Shown piece by piece: positions 96 through 33,389 of a stretch of 64,000 nucleotides of DNA. The position numbers and the translations under genes were made by a program. Position 1 is the first letter of the stretch; each line of letters opens with the position of its first letter. The notes under the pieces were generated by a model, which was not told the DNA's origin, searched no databases, and was given only the letters and a program-made list of their open reading frames with translations. The stretch comes from Clostridia bacterium (GTDB lineage Bacteria; Bacillota; Clostridia; UMGS1883), in contig JAZTXM010000006.1 of the NCBI GenBank assembly GCA_045636425.1, positions 8,784-72,783 of the forward strand, written 5' to 3'.

Positions 96-767
96 ATGCC
101 GAAAAAACGCATATATGCCATAGCTTCTGCGACAATTTTGCTTTTTGCCATATGCCTGAACGTGCTTGCCGTATCAAAAAACGGCTCTCGCGGCGAAGAA
201 GTACGCAAAATTCAGACGAAGCTGAAAAACTGGGGATATTACAACGGAAGTGTAGACGGAGTTTACGGCTGGCAGACCGAAAGTGCAGTCCGAAGCTTCC
301 AAAAGAAAAACGGACTCAGCGTTGACGGAGTTGCAGGAACAAAAACCCTTAATGCAATGGGCATCTATTCTTCTTCAGCTTCTTCGGGGGGAGGAGGCTC
401 ATCTTCTTCGCCCAATGAGGCAAATATTGAGCTTTTAGCACGGGTAATTAACGGGGAAGCCAGAGGCGAGCCTTACGAGGGGCAGGTTGCCGTAGGTGCG
501 GTGGTGCTAAACAGGGTGGACCATCCCTCTTTTCCCAATTCCATTTCGGGTGTAGTATATCAGAAGGGGGCTTTTACCGCCGTAGATGACGGGCAGATAA
601 ATGCCGAGATGTACGCAAGCAGCCATCGTGCCGCACGTGATGCATTAAACGGCTGGGACCCTACAGGCGGAGCAATTTATTATTACAATCCCAGGACGGC
701 GACAAATCAGTGGATAAGAACAAGGGAAGTTATATGTACTATAGGTGAGCACGTGTTTTGTAATTAA
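96..767 (+). CDS. sleB: Spore cortex-lytic enzyme SleB-like (N-terminal peptidoglycan-binding domain, Ser/Gly linker, C-terminal Hydrolase_2 domain)
   Basis: Signal peptide; PG_binding_1-like motif (GVDGVYGWQTESAVRSFQKKNGLSVDGVAGTKT); SleB-type catalytic domain (ARVINGEARGEPYEGQVAVGAVVLNRV); RBS AGGAGG before ATG. Confidence 0.75.
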   Translation: MPKKRIYAIASATILLFAICLNVLAVSKNGSRGEEVRKIQTKLKNWGYYNGSVDGVYGWQTESAVRSFQKKNGLSVDGVAGTKTLNAMGIYSSSASSGGGGSSSSPNEANIELLARVINGEARGEPYEGQVAVGAVVLNRVDHPSFPNSISGVVYQKGAFTAVDDGQINAEMYASSHRAARDALNGWDPTGGAIYYYNPRTATNQWIRTREVICTIGEHVFCN

Positions 768-9721: not shown

Positions 9722-10234
9722 ATGATGATGGTTGTTAAGAAAAAACAGCTTGTAGTTGCGGCTTTGGCTATTGTGATAGGAACGGCAGGATATCTTAATG
9801 CAGGGAAAAATCCTGTAAGTGAAACCTCGGGCGGCTATATGGGAGAAGCACAGCTTGTAGATTCCGACAGTATCAATGAAAGCAGTGAGGATTTTTTTGC
9901 CAGAGCCAGAATAGACCGTGAAGCGGGACGAAGCCGAAGCATAGAAACCTTTAACTCGATTATTATGAATGAAAACGCAGATGAAGCTGCAAAGGCGAGT
10001 GCCCAGCAGGGGGTTTTGCGGCTTGCTCAGAACACCGAAACGGAAAGTGCCATAGAAAATATTCTTCGGGTAAAAGGCTTTGAGGATGCGGTCTGCTATA
10101 TAAATAATGATATGGCAAACGTTGTGGTAAAAACACAGGTTCTGGACAGTACTGCCGCCGCAGTTATTTCCGAAGTTGTCACGGAGCAAAGCGGAATAGT
10201 TCAGGAAAAAATTAAAATTATGGAAATGAATTAG
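9722..10234 (+). CDS. spoIIIAH: Stage III sporulation protein AH
   Basis: Operon position; N-terminal TM segment; YscJ/FliF-like fold expected. Confidence 0.65.
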   Translation: MMMVVKKKQLVVAALAIVIGTAGYLNAGKNPVSETSGGYMGEAQLVDSDSINESSEDFFARARIDREAGRSRSIETFNSIIMNENADEAAKASAQQGVLRLAQNTETESAIENILRVKGFEDAVCYINNDMANVVVKTQVLDSTAAAVISEVVTEQSGIVQEKIKIMEMN

Positions 10235-30172: not shown

Positions 30173-32452
30173 ATGAAAATAAAAATAACAGCACTTATAA
30201 CAGCTTTAATGATGCTTGTAAATATCGGAGCATTTGCCGCATTTGAGGACATAAATGTCAACACAGGCGTGGGAAATGCCGTTAAACAGCTTGTGCAGTT
30301 GGGGATAATAAACGGCTATCCCGACGGCACATTCAGACCCGAGGACACTTTGACCCGCGGTCAGTTTGCAAAGATTGCCGTATGTATGCTGGGGGACGAA
30401 CAGCAGGCAGCTTCACGCAGTGCAAACGCCATTTTCAGCGATGTTCCCACAGAACATTGGGCAAGCGGATATATTAATTACATAGCAGAACGTCAGATAA
30501 TAAACGGTTATCCCGACGGCACCTTTGGAGCAGAGGACACCATTAATTACGCCCAGGCACTCACCATTCTTATAAGGCTTTTAGGGTATACGGGCGAGGA
30601 TGTTGCATACAAGTGGCCCGATGGCTATATTACCAAAGCACAGTCCCTCGGAATTACCAATGGAATATCCTTCGGAACATATGAAAACATCACACGCGGC
30701 AATGCGGCATATGTAATATATAACACCCTCCTTGCCGATAAAAAGGAGGGCTCATCCCTTTCGCTTTTAAGCTCCTCCTCCGTAAAGGATGTTGTAATTT
30801 ACGCTGATAACAGCATCAATGCAGGGCTTGCAATAGGAAATATTGAAACAACAAACGGAGTATATAAGCTTGCCGATAACTCAAATATCACCTCCGAGGT
30901 TTACGGAAGATTAGGTACATTGTATCTGGACGGCGAAAAGAGGGCAACGGCGTTTGTTCCCGAAAACGAAAATGTGAGAAGCGTTACCCTTTCAAGTGCC
31001 GCCGTAAGCGGTGACGGCAGAAGGGTGGAAATCGGCTTTACGGAAAATGGAACAGCAAAGGCTGAAAGCCTTCCTGCAAATGCACCCCTTTATTACGAGG
31101 GTAAAGCTTCTACGCTTTCGCAGGGTGCGGCAAAGCTTGAGGCAGGAAGTGAAGCACTCCTTCTTTACGCAGATGACGGAAGCTTTGCAAGAATGTATTT
31201 AAAGGAAAGCACTCTTTCGGGACCGAGAACGGTTACCTCAGGCTATTCTCAGATTTATTCTTTCTTTAGCATTGTAAACAGCGGCACGATGAAAGTAATC
31301 CGTGACGGACGAAACGCGACGCTTTCCGAAATTCAGGCATATGATGTCGTATATTATATGGCAGGCAATAACACCCTCTATGCCTACACCGATAAGGCAA
31401 GCGGTGTTTATGAGGAAGCATATCCCCTTAAGTCAAACGTAACAAGCGTTAAAGTAGGCGGTAAGGAATATTCCCTCTCCACTCAAACGGCAATCGGAAA
31501 AATGAATACCTCCGAGGGTGCATTTGAACTGGGAGAGCGTGTAACCTTACTCTTTGGCAGAGACGGCGAAGTTGTGGACGTTGTAAACCTTGCGGCAGTG
31601 GGAAGCCTTGATTTGGTCGTTCTGACAAAAAGCTACAAGGAAATATCACAGGAAACCGAGACGCTGGGAAAAAGCACGAACTATGTCACAGTAGTACTTC
31701 CCGACGGAGGCGAGGTTACCTACGAAGCAGACCGTGACTATAGTGACTATGTGGGAAATGTGATGAAAGTTAAATATGAAAACAACGTAGCAAAGCTTAC
31801 CGTAGTATCGCACACGAATATATACGGAGATTTTGATTCCTCAATACCCTCTTTGGGAGAATATTGGCTTTCAGAAAATTGTGCGATTCTTGAGCTTGTG
31901 GAAAATACCGCCAGCGGTGCAACTGTAAAAAAGATTGAGCTGCGTGACATTGTTACCGACAGCCTTACTAAGAATCAGGTGCTTCATGCAGAAACAAGCG
32001 GAGCACTCAGGGATATCACATTCCTTTACGTGACCGATGTTACAAAAACAGATGCAGATTTCGGCGTGGTAACGGAGGTCAACAAAAACAAGTATACAGT
32101 TTTAATTGATGACAGGACCACCCAAATCGAAACGGCAGTGAAGCTTGAACGCGGCTGCGCAGTGGAAATTCAGCAGACAAGCGACGGACAGATTGCAAAA
32201 AGGCTTACAAATGTAGGCTCGGCATCAAAGATAGAGGGCTACAGCGGAAGCAGAATCCGTGTAAACGGAAAGAACTATATCCTAAGTGATTATGTGAAAG
32301 TTTACGGAGGAACCTACGCAAATGAGTACACATCTATGTCGGTGTCGGAGCTTACAAACAGTGAAAATATTCAGAATATTACGCTGTATTCCGACAGGTC
32401 GCTTTCAAGCGGAGGCATCGTCAGAGTGATTGTGGTTAAGACAAAAAATTAA
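30173..32452 (+). CDS. SLH-domain cell-surface protein (759 aa)
   Basis: Signal peptide plus three N-terminal S-layer-homology repeats (GYPDGTFRPEDTLTRGQFAKI and similar). Confidence 0.8.
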   Translation: MKIKITALITALMMLVNIGAFAAFEDINVNTGVGNAVKQLVQLGIINGYPDGTFRPEDTLTRGQFAKIAVCMLGDEQQAASRSANAIFSDVPTEHWASGYINYIAERQIINGYPDGTFGAEDTINYAQALTILIRLLGYTGEDVAYKWPDGYITKAQSLGITNGISFGTYENITRGNAAYVIYNTLLADKKEGSSLSLLSSSSVKDVVIYADNSINAGLAIGNIETTNGVYKLADNSNITSEVYGRLGTLYLDGEKRATAFVPENENVRSVTLSSAAVSGDGRRVEIGFTENGTAKAESLPANAPLYYEGKASTLSQGAAKLEAGSEALLLYADDGSFARMYLKESTLSGPRTVTSGYSQIYSFFSIVNSGTMKVIRDGRNATLSEIQAYDVVYYMAGNNTLYAYTDKASGVYEEAYPLKSNVTSVKVGGKEYSLSTQTAIGKMNTSEGAFELGERVTLLFGRDGEVVDVVNLAAVGSLDLVVLTKSYKEISQETETLGKSTNYVTVVLPDGGEVTYEADRDYSDYVGNVMKVKYENNVAKLTVVSHTNIYGDFDSSIPSLGEYWLSENCAILELVENTASGATVKKIELRDIVTDSLTKNQVLHAETSGALRDITFLYVTDVTKTDADFGVVTEVNKNKYTVLIDDRTTQIETAVKLERGCAVEIQQTSDGQIAKRLTNVGSASKIEGYSGSRIRVNGKNYILSDYVKVYGGTYANEYTSMSVSELTNSENIQNITLYSDRSLSSGGIVRVIVVKTKN

Positions 32453-32461
32453 ACAGGTAAC

Positions 32462-32508
32462 AAAAAGAACAGACACCCACAAACGTGGATGCCTGTTCTT
32501 TTTGGCGC
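32462..32508. terminator. Hairpin plus T-tract terminator after the SLH gene. It is the first of three similar bidirectional hairpins in the repeat array
   Basis: gaacagacaccc...ggatgcctgttc hairpin followed by TTTTT; A-tract on the 5' side. Confidence 0.6.
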
Positions 32509-33190
32509 GCCCCCTGGGATTCTACCCGTTTGCGGTGCCCGACATATGTCTGCGGCGATAAATCACCTTGCCATCTGTCGACCGCTGCACAACCCTATGC
32601 CTTCCCTTCATCCGCCACCGGCGGCGGTCAGGCTCGGTTCCCCCTCCCCACGGGTCGGGGCTTCGAATCCCTTTTATCAAGCAAAAAAACAAAAGATACC
32701 CACTTCGTAGGTATCTTTCGCTTTTTTTGGCGTGCCCCGGGATTCTACCCGTTTGCGGTGCCCGACATATGTCTGCGGCGATAAATCGCCTTGCCCCCTG
32801 TCGACCGCTGCACAACCTGCACCCTCGCTTCATCCGCCATCGGCGGCGCTCGGGCTCGGTTCCCCCTCCCCACGGGTCGGGTTTTCGAATCCCTTTTAAT
32901 TCAAGCAAAAAGAAACAGACACCCACTGACGTGAATGTCTGTTCTTTTTGGCGTGCTTGGAGGGATTCGAACCCCCGACCCTTTGGTTCGTAGCCAAATA
33001 CTCTATCCAACTGAGCTACAAGCACACATTATTCAATTTTACGTTTGTTCGAATCCGGGATTCTACCCGTTTGCGGTGCCCGACATCTGTCAGCGGTGAT
33101 AAATCACCTTGTCATCTGTCGACCGCTGCACACCCCTGCGCCTTCCCTTCGTCCGCCACAGGCGGCGGTCAGGCTCGGTTCCCCCGCCCC
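32503..33190. repeat. Tandem array of about 215-225-bp repeat units: R1 32503-32690, R2 32727-32900 and a partial R3 33056-33190, interleaved with hairpin terminators and the tRNA-Arg gene
   Basis: R1, R2 and R3 are roughly 85-90% identical over about 160 bp (gggattctacccgtttgcggtgcccgacatatgtctgcggcgataaatcacc...). On the minus strand R1 and R2 end ...CGGGTAGAATCCCGGGGCACGCCA, which resembles the tRNA T-arm, acceptor and CCA. Confidence 0.8.
32941..33017 (-). tRNA. tRNA-Arg (anticodon ACG), CCA encoded
   Basis: Manual cloverleaf: acceptor GUGCUUG/CAAGCAC, D-arm GCUCAGUUGGAUAGAGU, anticodon loop CUACGAA, T-arm GGGGGUUCGAAUCCCUC. Closely resembles E. coli tRNA-Arg(ACG). Confidence 0.85.
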
Positions 33191-33234
33191 TTTGGTTCGT
33201 AGCCAAATACTCTATGGGGCTGAGCTACAAGCAC
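33187..33234 (-). pseudogene. 5' fragment of tRNA-Arg (acceptor 5' strand through anticodon arm, diverged D-loop) fused to repeat unit R3
   Basis: Minus-strand GTGCTTGTAGCTCAGCCCCATAGAGTATTTGGCTACGAACCAAAGGGG matches the first roughly 45 nt of the intact tRNA but lacks the T-arm and 3' acceptor. Confidence 0.55.
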
Positions 33235-33389
33235 ATATTATTAAACAAATCTTTTCAAACGCATTGACTATAATAACACATAAATCCGAAAAAAGCAAGA
33301 CTTATTTTGCAAAATTTTCAAATTTTATTACACTTTGCTCTATTTCAATTGACAAAAGGTTTCTTCTAATGATATACTAACTTATTATA

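Follow-up and report, generated by a model that had tools for sequence, protein, structure and literature searches.

What are the tandem repeat units that surround a tRNA-Arg gene in this Clostridia bacterium, and why do two of them end like a tRNA? The original prediction, made for a window of 64,000 nt (the whole stretch of DNA analysed here), left two answers side by side: a family of tRNA-like small RNAs, or the stacked scars of repeated integration at the tRNA gene. Judging by sequence comparison, the units R1, R2 and R3 represent one strongly structured, non-coding element of 116 bases, so far undescribed, which occurs in Clostridia of the gut and rumen and in phages of these bacteria. 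We hold, with moderate confidence, that they represent a non-coding mobile element whose 116-nt core is carried in gene-less tRNA cassettes.

A repeat array around an intact tRNA-Arg gene

The locus lies on the minus strand, where the order is a putative promoter, a copy of tRNA-Arg positions 1-53 together with R3, a 29-nt spacer, the intact tRNA-Arg(ACG), a terminator, R2, a terminator, R1 and a terminator. The tandem array and the intact gene are real and stand in the predicted order (Tandem Repeats Finder, ARAGORN, Rfam), and both the 29-nt spacer before the tRNA and the 5' half of tRNA-Arg (33234-33183) are present. The features are the following, with their basis in brackets.

33270..33298, minus strand: putative promoter of the tRNA-Arg operon (read from the sequence)
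33183..33234, minus strand: 5' copy of tRNA-Arg, positions 1 to ~53, fused to the R3 core (sequence)
33066..33182, minus strand: R3 core, copy 3 of the 116-nt structured element (covariance model, 120.4 bits, E 4e-21)
33026..33065, minus strand: joint of TAGAATCCC and GGATTCGAAC, then an AT-rich leader up to the intact tRNA (sequence)
32949..33025, minus strand: intact tRNA-Arg(ACG) (ARAGORN; Rfam tRNA, 67.3 bits)
32905..32948, minus strand: terminator T1, 3' of the tRNA, of the cassette type, ..TTCAC GTCA GTGGGT.. (scanner, fold)
32864..32893, minus strand: R2 left arm, made of GGGATTCGAAAACCCGACCC, the turn GT and the forward copy GGGGAGGG(GG) (sequence)
32748..32863, minus strand: R2 core, copy 2 of the 116-nt structured element (covariance model, 120.7 bits, E 4e-21)
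32728..32747, minus strand: R2 3' end, TAGAATCCCGGGGCACGCCA, a decayed tRNA-Arg copy (sequence)
32683..32727, minus strand: terminator T2 and spacer (fold)
32642..32671, minus strand: R1 left arm, made of GGGATTCGAAGCCCCGACCC, GT and GGGGAGGG(GG) (sequence)
32525..32641, minus strand: R1 core, copy 1 of the 116-nt structured element (covariance model, 123.4 bits, E 1e-21)
32503..32524, minus strand: R1 3' end, TAGAATCCCAGGGGGCGCGCCA, a copy of the tRNA-Arg 3' end more decayed than that of R2 (sequence)
32460..32502, minus strand: terminator T3 (fold)

Tandem Repeats Finder gives a period of 223 with 1.9-2.2 copies and 81-88% matches over 32461-32956, and a 16-mer of the body occurs three times, against 0.21 occurrences expected. 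The covariance model detects three core copies in the 64-kb window (120-123 bits, E ~1e-21) and no other match. The bodies had been described as 85-90% identical. Full R1 and R2 units share 84.6% of their positions and the cores 79.5-88.6% in pairwise alignments, the comparisons with R3 falling slightly below the described range.

One tRNA-Arg(ACG) is found in the window by both ARAGORN and Rfam (32949-33025, minus strand). The Rfam tRNA model RF00005 has a gathering threshold of 29 bits; the intact gene scores 67.3 bits and the 5' part fused to R3 19.9 bits, below threshold, while R1 and R2 give no RF00005 match even at E<=10. The fused 5' part contains the acceptor 5' strand, the D arm, the anticodon arm, the variable loop and the T-stem 5' strand, and its D loop has TTGGA changed to CCCCA. 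A 5'-tRNA/R3 chimera with the identical D-loop change is also present in three other loci (L015, L001 and L007).

The operon is probably transcribed from a promoter at 33270..33298, composed of a -35 element TTGCTT (33298-33293), a 17-nt spacer and an extended -10 element TGtTATTAT (33278-33270). A consensus scanner did not call it because the -35 element matches at just 3/6 positions. The arrangement TTGC(A/T)T ... TGTTAT.AT recurs upstream of the orthologous loci L001, L002, L007, L011 and L015. Since R3 lies between promoter and tRNA, its core is predicted to be made within the pre-tRNA leader.

On the minus strand, T1, T2 and T3 fold at -24 to -31 kcal/mol with an A-run and a U-run at their sides, and the plus-strand folds are weaker (T1, -25.5 kcal/mol; T2, -24.2 versus -12.6 on the plus strand; T3, -31.0 versus -23.0). 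A simple terminator scanner made a single call, the terminator after the tRNA (32944-32913). Each unit had been credited with a bidirectional terminator of its own. This is correct for R1 and R2, with the strand difference just given, but R3 has none. T3 also closes the convergent SLH-protein gene, a plus-strand gene with SLH domains that ends at 32452.

The 116-nt core and its conserved structure

The core belongs to a family of 50+ copies in MAGs of Clostridia and Oscillospiraceae, in metagenomes and in phage contigs. The covariance model yields 39 strong matches in 30 sources, and 56 matches in 42 sources. Most homologues were gathered with exact-match patterns in the conserved 3' part of the core, and for that reason the sample is biased towards the conserved 3' motif. 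Searches of the window and 33 related loci against Rfam 15 (4227 models), in gathering and permissive modes (E<=1-10), returned only tRNA, and no family overlaps the core. In the literature, word and sequence-string searches found no description of the element. The body is indeed unlike known RNAs, as had been stated, and no tmRNA is reported in the window by ARAGORN or Rfam, nor was any Y-RNA-like match obtained.

On the tRNA-sense strand, the core folds into three covarying helices, P1, P2 and P3. P2 is capped by a GCCGCC-NGUG-GGCGG hairpin and P3 is closed by GCGGUC...G-GGC-ACCGC; the joining sequences are highly conserved, and the core terminates in ...GGGCACCGCAAACGG. RNAalifold predicts 24 pairs, 14 of them with compensatory changes, and double changes are seen in 15/24 pairs among more than 35 distinct homologues. 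Paired cells amount to 96.7%, against 79.4% in shuffles; none of the 500 shuffles reached the observed pairing score, and slid controls were 31-55% paired. The tRNA-sense strand is the more stable one in 34/35 copies, and the fold tolerates G-T pairs. Folded as a single sequence, R2 does not surpass its shuffles in stability (z = -1.2), and the case for structure therefore relies on covariation. Overall, a conserved structure of the core is supported, and more strongly than the original prediction had expected.

Several more specific assignments were abandoned. In many long variants, P3 contains an asymmetric loop resembling a kink-turn; judged by a C stem, a 3-nt bulge, tandem G.A/A.G and an NC stem, the strict consensus is present in just 4/37 distinct copies (24/37 when relaxed), and the claim was dropped. 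An alternative GUGC/GCAC pairing was rejected on account of two uncompensated 5'-side variants. A group I or group II intron in the tRNA gene was also discarded: there is no Rfam intron match, and R3 has the T-loop TTCGA replaced and the acceptor 3' strand missing. Introns of both groups are far larger than 116 nt.

The structure nevertheless invites a reading of the units as small-RNA genes. The core would then work as an RNA that binds protein, regulates or catalyses and is expressed together with tRNA-Arg, mobility would be secondary, and the tRNA flanks would be handles selected for RNase P, RNase Z, the CCA enzyme or an RNase III-cut closing helix, releasing or stabilising the RNA. The strong covariation and the riboswitch- or ribozyme-like conservation of unpaired nucleotides are in keeping with this, as are the strand preference of the fold, to which the terminators are tuned as well, and the position of R3, which four related genomes retain, downstream of a conserved promoter and ahead of the tRNA. 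A predicted centroid fold closes the whole unit by GGGAUUC/GAAUCCC, but this helix is unconserved in L009, L010 and L013. Several phages carry the core in sense orientation within their packaging module, but some phage copies are antisense to the operon, and nested and tandem copies exist. Moreover, the flanks vary with the neighbouring tRNA and are absent from phage copies, the acceptor strands of R1 and R2 are partnerless and decaying, both units stand behind strong terminators with no recognisable promoter found, and the R2 fold taken singly does not exceed its shuffles. We consider the small-RNA reading doubtful, though worth keeping in mind.

tRNA-derived flanks and insertion of the core

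The tRNA-like ends are not intrinsic to the element; they are pieces borrowed from the neighbouring tRNA gene rather than parts of an RNA evolved to mimic a tRNA. The T-arm, acceptor and CCA resemblance described for the 3' ends of R1 and R2 is genuine, but mimicry is not the explanation: their GCCA ends, ATCCCGGGGCACGCCA and ATCCCAGGGGGCGCGCCA, are degenerate copies of the tRNA-Arg 3' end ATCCCTCCAAGCACGCCA and have no 5' acceptor partner. In R2, TAGAATCCCGGGGCACGCCA corresponds to the 3' half of the T loop, the T stem, the acceptor and CCA of tRNA-Arg, in decayed form. At their start, both units also have the tRNA T arm copied in reverse complement (GGGATTCGAAGCCCCGACCC), which had been missed. 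The R1 left arm matches the reverse complement of the T arm at 19/20 positions, and GGGATTCGAAAACCCGACCC of R2 is the reverse complement of tRNA-Arg positions ~45-63. The core is flanked by forward tRNA copies (positions 44-53 and 59-76), with the inverted copy (45-63) upstream. Between R3 and the intact gene, TAGAATCCC, a T-loop remnant with the T-stem 3' strand, abuts GGATTCGAAC, an inverted T-arm piece that is the usual unit start; the GAATCCC-(0-12 nt)-GGATTCGAAC joint is also found in L008, L012, L013, L015, L007, L010 and L016.

At other loci the same core is joined to other tRNAs, namely tRNA-Ser ends (L009, L014, L027), tRNA-Glu (L016) and tRNA-Met (L017, L026, L053), and phage copies carry no tRNA sequence. 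Ser and Met units have analogous inverted-plus-forward copies of the local tRNA, taken from the anticodon arm in Met units. At Arg and Ser loci, R-type and S-type units alike have a tRNA-derived part that begins at ..|ATCCC; in Met units its start lies in the anticodon loop. A family of tRNA-like small RNAs, the first of the two answers proposed at the outset, is not supported, given ends that copy whichever tRNA is adjacent (Arg, Ser, Glu or Met), are missing in phage and some other copies and have decayed in R1 and R2. The units also differ from tmRNA and YrlA/Y RNA: they share with these a hairpin resembling a T arm next to a structured body, which in R1 and R2 is accompanied by a GCCA end, but the tRNA-like parts here are copied from the adjacent gene, vary with that gene and are dispensable in other copies.

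The core itself behaves as an insertion adjoining GG, as judged from filled and empty sites, and is probably a mobile element mobilised by an enzyme encoded elsewhere. In L034, the same 21-bp tRNA-derived site is filled once and empty twice, and REP-like hairpins on phage contigs of the L043 type are both filled and empty. Two copies abut head to tail in L041, and in L055 one core is nested inside another, at GCGG^. A tRNA-Met gene has its D loop occupied by the core in L017, and behind the same promoter in L026 this gene is intact. Among copies of tRNA genes, insertions were found in D, anticodon and T arms. The viral contig UViG_3300032167_004945 of IMG/VR (L045, L047, L058) carries at least three copies and the viral contig L059 three, and the copies on these contigs occur in both orientations relative to phage genes. 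Locus L002, syntenic with the window, is without R3 and has a single unit.

Could the units be inert debris, that is, leftover attR arms of a largely deleted prophage or island with incidental structure? The tRNA 3' fragments stand in direct repeat, and these tRNA loci are hot spots of integration, where L012 carries an island at the anticodon loop and L053 one with a large serine recombinase at the 3' end. However, the covariation lies far beyond that of shuffled and slid controls, cores are also present in phage structural modules and other non-tRNA contexts, and the cassette boundaries are precise and recurrent in many species. This explanation, already disfavoured, is barely credible.

The 5' flank of the core always ends ..GG and the element ends ..CGG, which resembles the paired transposon-adjacent and transposon-encoded motifs of the IS200/IS605 family. 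The core might be a non-autonomous element of this type (PATE) whose movement, as single-stranded DNA, would depend on a Y1 transposase encoded at another place, and it may carry a guide-RNA scaffold for a TnpB that is likewise encoded elsewhere. As in PATEs and guide-RNA scaffolds, hairpins specific to one strand lie near its two ends, it has neither terminal inverted repeats nor a clear target duplication, and it inserts beside a short motif like its own 3' end; tandem and gene-less copies are known for the IS200/IS605 family (PMC10055086). In contrast to them, the core has no partner found: no tnpB, iscB or tnpA lies between or beside the ends of any copy, and no Y1-like ORF was detected in the window or the loci, where tblastn with an IS608 TnpA query, a weak test, gave nothing below E 0.4. 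In addition, the core has no match to the Rfam IS605-orfB or HEARO models, its two hairpins are dissimilar and its 3' junction is often not scarless. Taken together, we find a PATE origin very improbable.

The first base 3' of simple insertions often differs from that of the empty site. This one-base difference fits no textbook mechanism and counts against our main reading. A classical MITE was rejected: the core is without terminal inverted repeats, the 12-nt inverted pieces of the full unit are T-arm copies, and GG at both ends is ambiguous as a target duplication. With bacterial intergenic repeats and MITE-like elements (ERIC, Correia, RUP/BOX, REPIN) the core shares a size of 100-200 nt, a non-coding and multi-copy nature, RNA folding, intergenic positions, often near terminators or palindromes, nested and tandem copies, and a mobilising enzyme that is not in the element. 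Unlike these, it lacks terminal inverted repeats and clear target duplication and sits in the arms of tRNA copies. Its three covarying helices and conserved unpaired joints also bring it closer to a riboswitch or ribozyme than to a simple hairpin.

A proposed stacking of gene-less cassettes at tRNA genes

Homology between loci extends beyond the core. Compared between Arg and Ser loci, CCA-terminator-spacer-GGATTCGAA segments reach an identity of 71-78%, against <60% at most in shuffles, and terminators directly after real tRNAs are among them. T1 is 73-78% identical to the terminator-spacer segments at tRNA-Ser loci, and the T2 segment is 93% identical to that of L012 and 73-75% to those of tRNA-Ser loci. 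The whole 220-bp unit, terminator included, is common to tRNA-Arg and tRNA-Ser loci, which suggests that cassettes without genes have been stacked onto the 3' end of the tRNA. An unrelated body, 'S', fills the same slot, and its tRNA part again starts at ATCCC.

The second answer of the original prediction, stacked att scars, captured part of this. The architecture is there, with direct repeats of the tRNA 3' part from a fixed position in the T loop, an intact tRNA at one end, and a tRNA 3' end and terminator delivered by a unit common to different target loci, but no known large element has the units as its junctions. Neither were the units found solely as attL/attR ends of such an element, nor was covariation absent. 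No site-specific recombinase was found in the units, among the five genes nearest the array (all housekeeping by Pfam) or recurrently near cores. All-against-all comparison of the ORFs around 40 loci revealed no recurrent recombinase, transposase or RT; the ORFs that recur belong to synteny groups (metY/metA, the SLH gene, ABC transporter genes) or are phage structural genes. BLAST against phage and plasmid collections matched only the tRNA-Arg part.

Stacked partial tRNAs left by successive integrations are documented for other elements (10.1101/2020.12.28.424599). A close parallel is tandem accretion at tRNA genes, as in tycheposon islands and cis-mobilisable elements without integrase. There, too, an intact tRNA stands at one end, direct tRNA 3' repeats start from a fixed loop point (10.1101/2020.12.28.424599), newer units would displace older, decaying ones, and content varies between related genomes. 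The units of the present array differ in being ~220 bp long and gene-less, with no integrase found nearby, and in carrying a terminator, a conserved structured core and an inverted tRNA-arm copy.

Our proposal of a mobile core within tRNA cassettes builds on the observations that the family exists and is structured, that its members behave as insertions, that the flanks are of local origin and that the cassette is homologous across tRNA loci. From these we infer how the units recombine, that an enzyme encoded elsewhere mobilises them, that they are transcribed and that the RNA may have a function. The core would enter DNA able to form hairpins, next to GG; in the present array the landing place would be a T arm within redundant copies of the 3' region of tRNA-Arg. 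The resulting unit would read terminator, spacer, inverted T-arm copy, short forward copy of tRNA positions 44-53, core and tRNA 3' end (T loop to CCA). Downstream of the tRNA, such cassettes would accumulate through recombination at one set point of the T loop (..GA|ATCCC..), each arrival supplying a new tRNA 3' end and terminator and pushing outward the older copies, which would decay. Unequal or short-homology recombination may then reshape the array. The chimera of 5'-half tRNA and R3 could be a deletion between the GGGnnGGGGG of the tRNA copy and that of a downstream cassette; L013 has the order tRNA-cassette-tRNA-cassette, from which one deletion would give this chimera.

Members of the tRNA-linked (TAGAA) subfamily are few in each genome, and all those found adjoin tRNA genes or fragments of them; exact-pattern scans detected none in viral contigs. 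With so few, tRNA-bound copies, tandem duplication and gene conversion, instead of repeated integration, could have produced part of the array.

Plain double-stranded att x att recombination was rejected as an account of everything: it fails on the forward piece of the local tRNA (44-53) upstream of the core and on the inverted arm copy. A snap-back or hairpin-replication origin of the inverted copy was also set aside, as it would predict an inverted core copy, contrary to observation. On another scheme, the tRNA-arm copies and the 3' part would form, in folded single-stranded DNA, a duplex mimicking a T-arm or anticodon-arm site with the core looped out, and a tyrosine recombinase would swap one strand with the tRNA gene. 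Because the reaction would be irreversible, cassettes would accumulate in series. The scheme could explain the inverted-plus-forward copies of local tRNA arms in Arg, Ser and Met units, the strand-specific fold that tolerates G-T pairs, the fixed ..GA|ATCCC.. joint, and both the delivery of a tRNA 3' end with terminator and the stacking. XerCD carries out such a one-strand exchange between the folded attP of CTX phage and dif. Two inverted target-site copies ~100 nt apart that could fold into a site mimic, and serial irreversible stacking at one locus, would be common to the cassettes and CTX-type systems (IMEX); unlike there, the cassette target would be a tRNA arm and not dif, and no phage genome is attached. 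However, no source of single-stranded DNA and no recombinase were identified, the core alone enters phage hairpins without arm copies, arm pairing is degenerate in several units, and the conserved unpaired sequences are not needed by such a model. As it stands, we judge folded single-stranded DNA quite unlikely to account for the array.

A broader idea, which we also regard as unlikely, is that the core may be a new mobile nucleic acid, directed by its own fold, and not by an encoded protein or terminal repeats, into GG-adjacent hairpin loops. Among the places so entered would be the D, anticodon, variable and T arms of tRNA sequences. An RNA form may enter RNA loops, for instance through reverse splicing or by being ligated where a loop has been cleaved, and be copied back to DNA; or folded single-stranded DNA may mimic a tRNA-arm site and borrow a host recombinase. 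Either way, the cassettes at tRNA genes would be a domesticated or site-specific version.

If the reading of a mobile core in gene-less tRNA cassettes is true, a widespread, strongly conserved structured element of Clostridia from gut and rumen and of their phages is missing from RNA family catalogues. Cassettes without genes would rebuild the 3' end and terminator of essential tRNA genes at every arrival, which would reduce to its minimum the island-building process that much larger elements are known for. It would also be a warning that tRNA-like ends beside tRNA genes can be derived from the target, and six-frame ORFs, tRNA pseudogene calls and assembly breaks at such loci would be by-products. 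Finally, the core would offer a tractable case of how a 116-nt sequence spreads without protein or terminal repeats, a question that it shares with ERIC and similar classic repeats of bacteria.

The array beside tRNA-Arg(ACG)

On the minus strand, a putative promoter precedes a partial tRNA-Arg copy joined to the repeat R3, the intact tRNA-Arg(ACG) and two further repeats, R2 and R1. Each repeat holds one 116-nt structured element, hereafter the core; the surrounding stretch of about 220 bp, with tRNA-derived flanks and a terminator, is the unit or cassette. Both promoter elements were read by eye and are kept in orthologues; the promoter scanner made no call for the tRNA-Arg operon.

Features of the tRNA-Arg(ACG) locus
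33298-33293, minus strand: putative promoter, -35 element TTGCTT
33278-33270, minus strand: putative promoter, extended -10 element TGtTATTAT
33234-33183, minus strand: tRNA-Arg copy, positions 1 to about 53, joined to R3
33182-33066, minus strand: R3 core
Between R3 core and intact tRNA-Arg, minus strand: TAGAATCCC-GGATTCGAAC, then an AT-rich leader
33025-32949, minus strand: intact tRNA-Arg(ACG)
Between intact tRNA-Arg and R2, minus strand: terminator T1
32893-32728, minus strand: unit R2, followed by terminator T2
32671-32503, minus strand: unit R1, followed by terminator T3

The predicted tandem array with an intact tRNA-Arg holds in its period (223, Tandem Repeats Finder), order and terminators, except that R3 has no terminator. 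The three cores are 80-89% identical. Fold energies of T1, T2 and T3 lie between -24 and -31 kcal/mol for the minus strand and are weaker for the plus strand; T3 lies against the end of an SLH-domain gene that runs convergently towards it. Closest to the array are housekeeping genes: those for the SLH protein and a MacB/FtsX-type transporter, a Cys/Met-metabolism PLP-dependent enzyme that is probably MetY, a probable MetA of the homoserine O-succinyltransferase family, and a CNNM/CBS protein. Mechanical ORFs of 99-167 aa span the tRNA and repeats (32522-33025, minus; 32568-32993 and 32485-32784, plus). As the original prediction held, ORFs across the array are repeat artefacts, judged so from their overlap with the tRNA gene and terminators.

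A structured core family

The R bodies have no Rfam 15 match, the tRNA itself being the sole hit, and matches in phage and plasmid collections are restricted to the tRNA part. Searching with an exact 22-mer of the body gave 16 loci in Clostridia/Oscillospiraceae MAGs; a gapped pattern yielded roughly 13 true members from metagenomes and roughly 15 from viral contigs (loci are given L numbers here). Because homologues were mostly collected via exact patterns in the conserved 3' region, the breadth and variability of the family are underestimated; the covariance model also detects variants, such as ..GTACCACAAACGGA in L036. In the window it finds exactly three copies (E about 1e-21).

Alignment of 35 distinct copies delimits a core of 116 nt, from GG(N3)CG... 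to ...GGGCACCGCAAACGG(N). The RNAalifold prediction has three helices: P1, P2 with the hairpin GCCGCC-NGUG-GGCGG at its end, and P3, closed by GCGGUC/G-GGC-ACCGC; 14 of the 24 pairs show compensatory double changes. When 37 distinct copies are aligned on the model, 96.7% of cells pair versus 79.4% in column shuffles, 15 pairs show double changes, none of 500 shuffles reaches the observed pairing score, and slid registers pair at 31-55% only. Hence, of the predicted tRNA-like small RNAs, the conserved structure stands on covariation; the "tRNA-like" label does not, the ends being target-derived (see below). In 34 of 35 copies the tRNA-sense strand is the more stable of the two (by a mean of 3.8 kcal/mol), so the structure is read on that strand, as RNA or single-stranded DNA. 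Many P3 stems contain a loop resembling a kink-turn, but a kink-turn is not claimed, since the strict consensus occurs in only 4 of 37 copies. Overall, the core family is large, undescribed and structured, with no description in Rfam or the searchable literature.

A variant, core-B (GAGCGA-GGGAA-GCGCCGCC..GGCGGAUGAAGCGACCCGAGCGAGUGGCAGCGGUCGG..), has a rearranged 5' half and scores only 37 bits with the model. It lies at L017 1-75 (minus) and L055 about 10110-10200 (minus), where a standard core splits it. One R copy, at L012 2918-3109 (plus), carries about 90 extra nt between P1/P2 and P3 (GGGTAGCGAAGCGGCGGCGAGGAAGTGAATGACAATCCGG...), which may be an insertion or expansion.

Insertion sites and borrowed tRNA ends

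Cores were found near tRNA-Ser, tRNA-Glu and tRNA-Met genes, and also at non-tRNA sites. At tRNA-Ser loci (L009, L014, L027, L006, L022), a hairpin from the tRNA-Ser variable arm and T stem lies upstream of the core, which is followed by TAGAATCCC-TCCTTCTCCGCCA, the tRNA-Ser end. At the tRNA-Glu locus L016, the core sits within the T loop of a second tRNA-Glu copy. At tRNA-Met loci (L026, L018, L053), a reverse-complement copy of the complete anticodon arm stands first, then the anticodon-stem 5' strand and the core, and after the core comes tRNA-Met sequence that starts in the anticodon or variable loop and runs through CCA. No tRNA sequence of any kind accompanies the phage copies or several of the chromosomal ones. 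Since the ends vary with the neighbouring tRNA and are absent from phage copies, the T-arm, acceptor and CCA look of R1 and R2, first taken for mimicry, is borrowed from the neighbouring gene and not evolved by the RNA. Their GCCA ends are decayed copies of the tRNA-Arg 3' end lacking an acceptor partner; their 5' start is a reverse-complement T-arm copy (19 of 20 bases in R1), which a brief forward copy, GGGGAGGGGG, connects to the body.

In its various contexts the core acts as a discrete insertion. In L034, one of three copies of a 21-bp tRNA-derived site is interrupted by the core exactly after GGG, and a common REP-like hairpin of one phage lineage, AGCTCCCC-TGTA-GGGG^AGCT, is present both split by the core and, a few bases away, intact. 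Cores abut head to tail in L041, L050 and L059, and one is nested in another variant copy, at GCGG^, in L055 and L056. In L017, the promoter and leader that serve an intact tRNA-Met in L026 precede a tRNA-Met copy with a core in the D loop after G18G19, and a second core-like insertion stands after CCCGGAGG. A phage genome may contain two to four copies or more, spread over unrelated intergenic regions; they mostly share the orientation of the genes, but those of one phage are antisense. GG invariably forms the 5' flank or first bases, ..CGG closes the 3' end, and the first base 3' of the core is often unlike the empty site. No protein gene recurs beside cores, and a rough search found no Y1 transposase.

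Short GC-rich palindromes (AGCTCCCCTGTAGGGGAGCT, GTCAGCGAAGCTGAC, CCTCCCCTTGAGGGGAGG) are dense in phage and chromosomal intergenic regions (L043, L045, L047, L052, L058 and the L021/L034 flanks); they are preferred landing sites outside tRNA sequences. CCGTTTG or CGTTTGC, complementary to the core 3' tail GCAAACGG, stands just 3' of several non-tRNA copies and could form an alternative hairpin or hint at target pairing; in L034 the complement of the tail is already in the empty site.

Examples of downstream CCGTTTG/CGTTTGC
L036 7799-7840, plus strand
L034 2008-1990, minus strand
L024 1799-1825, plus strand

The phage-associated RNA motifs GP20-b (L036 3891-3953, plus) and Gut-1 (L033 1523-1600, plus) share contigs with cores. 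L036 and L055 each have a core between the large terminase gene and a downstream gene at the usual portal position; in L036 that downstream gene has no Pfam match. In L059, two cores are upstream of an ORF that we take to encode a small terminase subunit.

Cassettes, arm copies and the R3 chimera

The 220-bp unit is the cassette, not the core alone. The CCA-terminator-spacer-GGATTCGAA segment is 71-78% identical between tRNA-Arg and tRNA-Ser loci (shuffle maximum below 60%), a similarity that extends to terminators directly after the real tRNA genes. In L012, L015 and L010 the slot is taken by an unrelated second body, S, whose tRNA-derived part starts at exactly ATCCC, as in R units. The S unit reads GGATTCGAACCCTGAGAGGGCAGCGAGCG ... 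GCAGGCAAGATGCGTAGCATCTGT/ATCCC-acceptor-CCA plus terminator; it is GC-rich, its internal hairpins differ among loci, and its body matches neither the core model nor Rfam. In L014, nine extra bases lie between the core's own TAGAATCCC and ATCCC, so tRNA joint and core end are separable. L007 has no downstream cassette, and the terminator after its tRNA differs.

Positions of the S body
L012 2686-2832, plus strand
L015 about 4786-4640, minus strand
L010 about 1-130 and 305-420, plus strand

Cassettes would recombine with the tRNA gene at a fixed T-loop point, each arrival supplying a new tRNA 3' end and terminator, and the displaced older end would then decay. The pattern is as expected under such T-loop recombination: R2 matches it, and R1 even more so. 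Of the suggested stacked recombination scars, construction by recombination at the tRNA site is retained; plain double-stranded att x att fails for the forward piece upstream of the core, which matches the local tRNA, and for the inverted arm copy before it, both present in Arg, Ser and Met units. The arm copies could pair to close the unit as RNA, as they do in the centroid fold. The attP of CTX phage is folded single-stranded DNA mimicking its target site, and by analogy folded single-stranded DNA could mimic a tRNA-arm site here. Arm pairing is degenerate in several units.

The window arrangement of tRNA 5' part, core, TAGAATCCC-GGATTCGAAC, leader and intact tRNA would arise exactly from the L013 array (tRNA, terminator, cassette, GGGATTCGAAC, leader, tRNA, terminator, cassette) by one deletion between the first tRNA's GGGnnGGGGG and the identical stretch before the core. 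The chimera, including a D-loop change, is common to the window, L015, L001 and L007 and absent from L002 despite the same promoter and flanking genes. This distribution points to a product of old recombination, or to the core having inserted directly into a duplicated copy, the case seen in L017, and led us to reject a split or permuted tRNA gene. Since the chimera lies between the promoter and the operon's only tRNA, the R3 core should be transcribed in the pre-tRNA leader. At 33221-33211 (minus), within the tRNA-Arg 5' copy joined to R3, CCCC(A/T) stands where the D loop should have GG (TTGGA); all four genomes share this run, which could pair with GGGG before the core, in place of the R1/R2 hairpin there.

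These tRNA loci also serve as hot spots for larger elements, as in L012 and L053. At L012 1-2640 (plus), an island encoding an AAA_14/DUF4143 ATPase and a weak rolling-circle replication protein match (Phage_CRI, E 1e-4) joins a tRNA-Arg fragment beginning in the anticodon loop (TACGAACCAAAGGG..CCA, about 2580), an att sublocation unlike that of cassettes at this tRNA. At L053 209-7720 (plus), a 7.5-kb island, bounded by tRNA-Met on one side and a 12-nt repeat of the tRNA 3' end (CCCCTGCACCCA) on the other, is inserted ahead of a pre-existing cassette; the island's large serine recombinase and small terminase subunit genes suggest a phage-satellite-like element.

For elements of much larger size, partial tRNAs stacked by one integration after another have been described (10.1101/2020.12.28.424599). 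In the way it works, the locus resembles a stack of integrative cassettes at a tRNA gene, but its units are only about 220 bp and gene-less, and the core behaves like small structured intergenic repeats. The element fits none of the tested definitions of tRNA, tmRNA, intron, classical MITE or TnpB/IscB scaffold. On membership of the IS200/IS605 PATE group the signs are mixed: the core has hairpins close to its two ends, GG at the 5' side and a ..CGG end, yet the base that follows it often departs from the empty site and the rough search gave no Y1 transposase. Both original alternatives are partly right. We give a modest probability to the core having a novel mode of movement, and rate the locus as tRNA-site cassettes that lack genes and carry a structured mobile core, the kinds of element being known and the core new.
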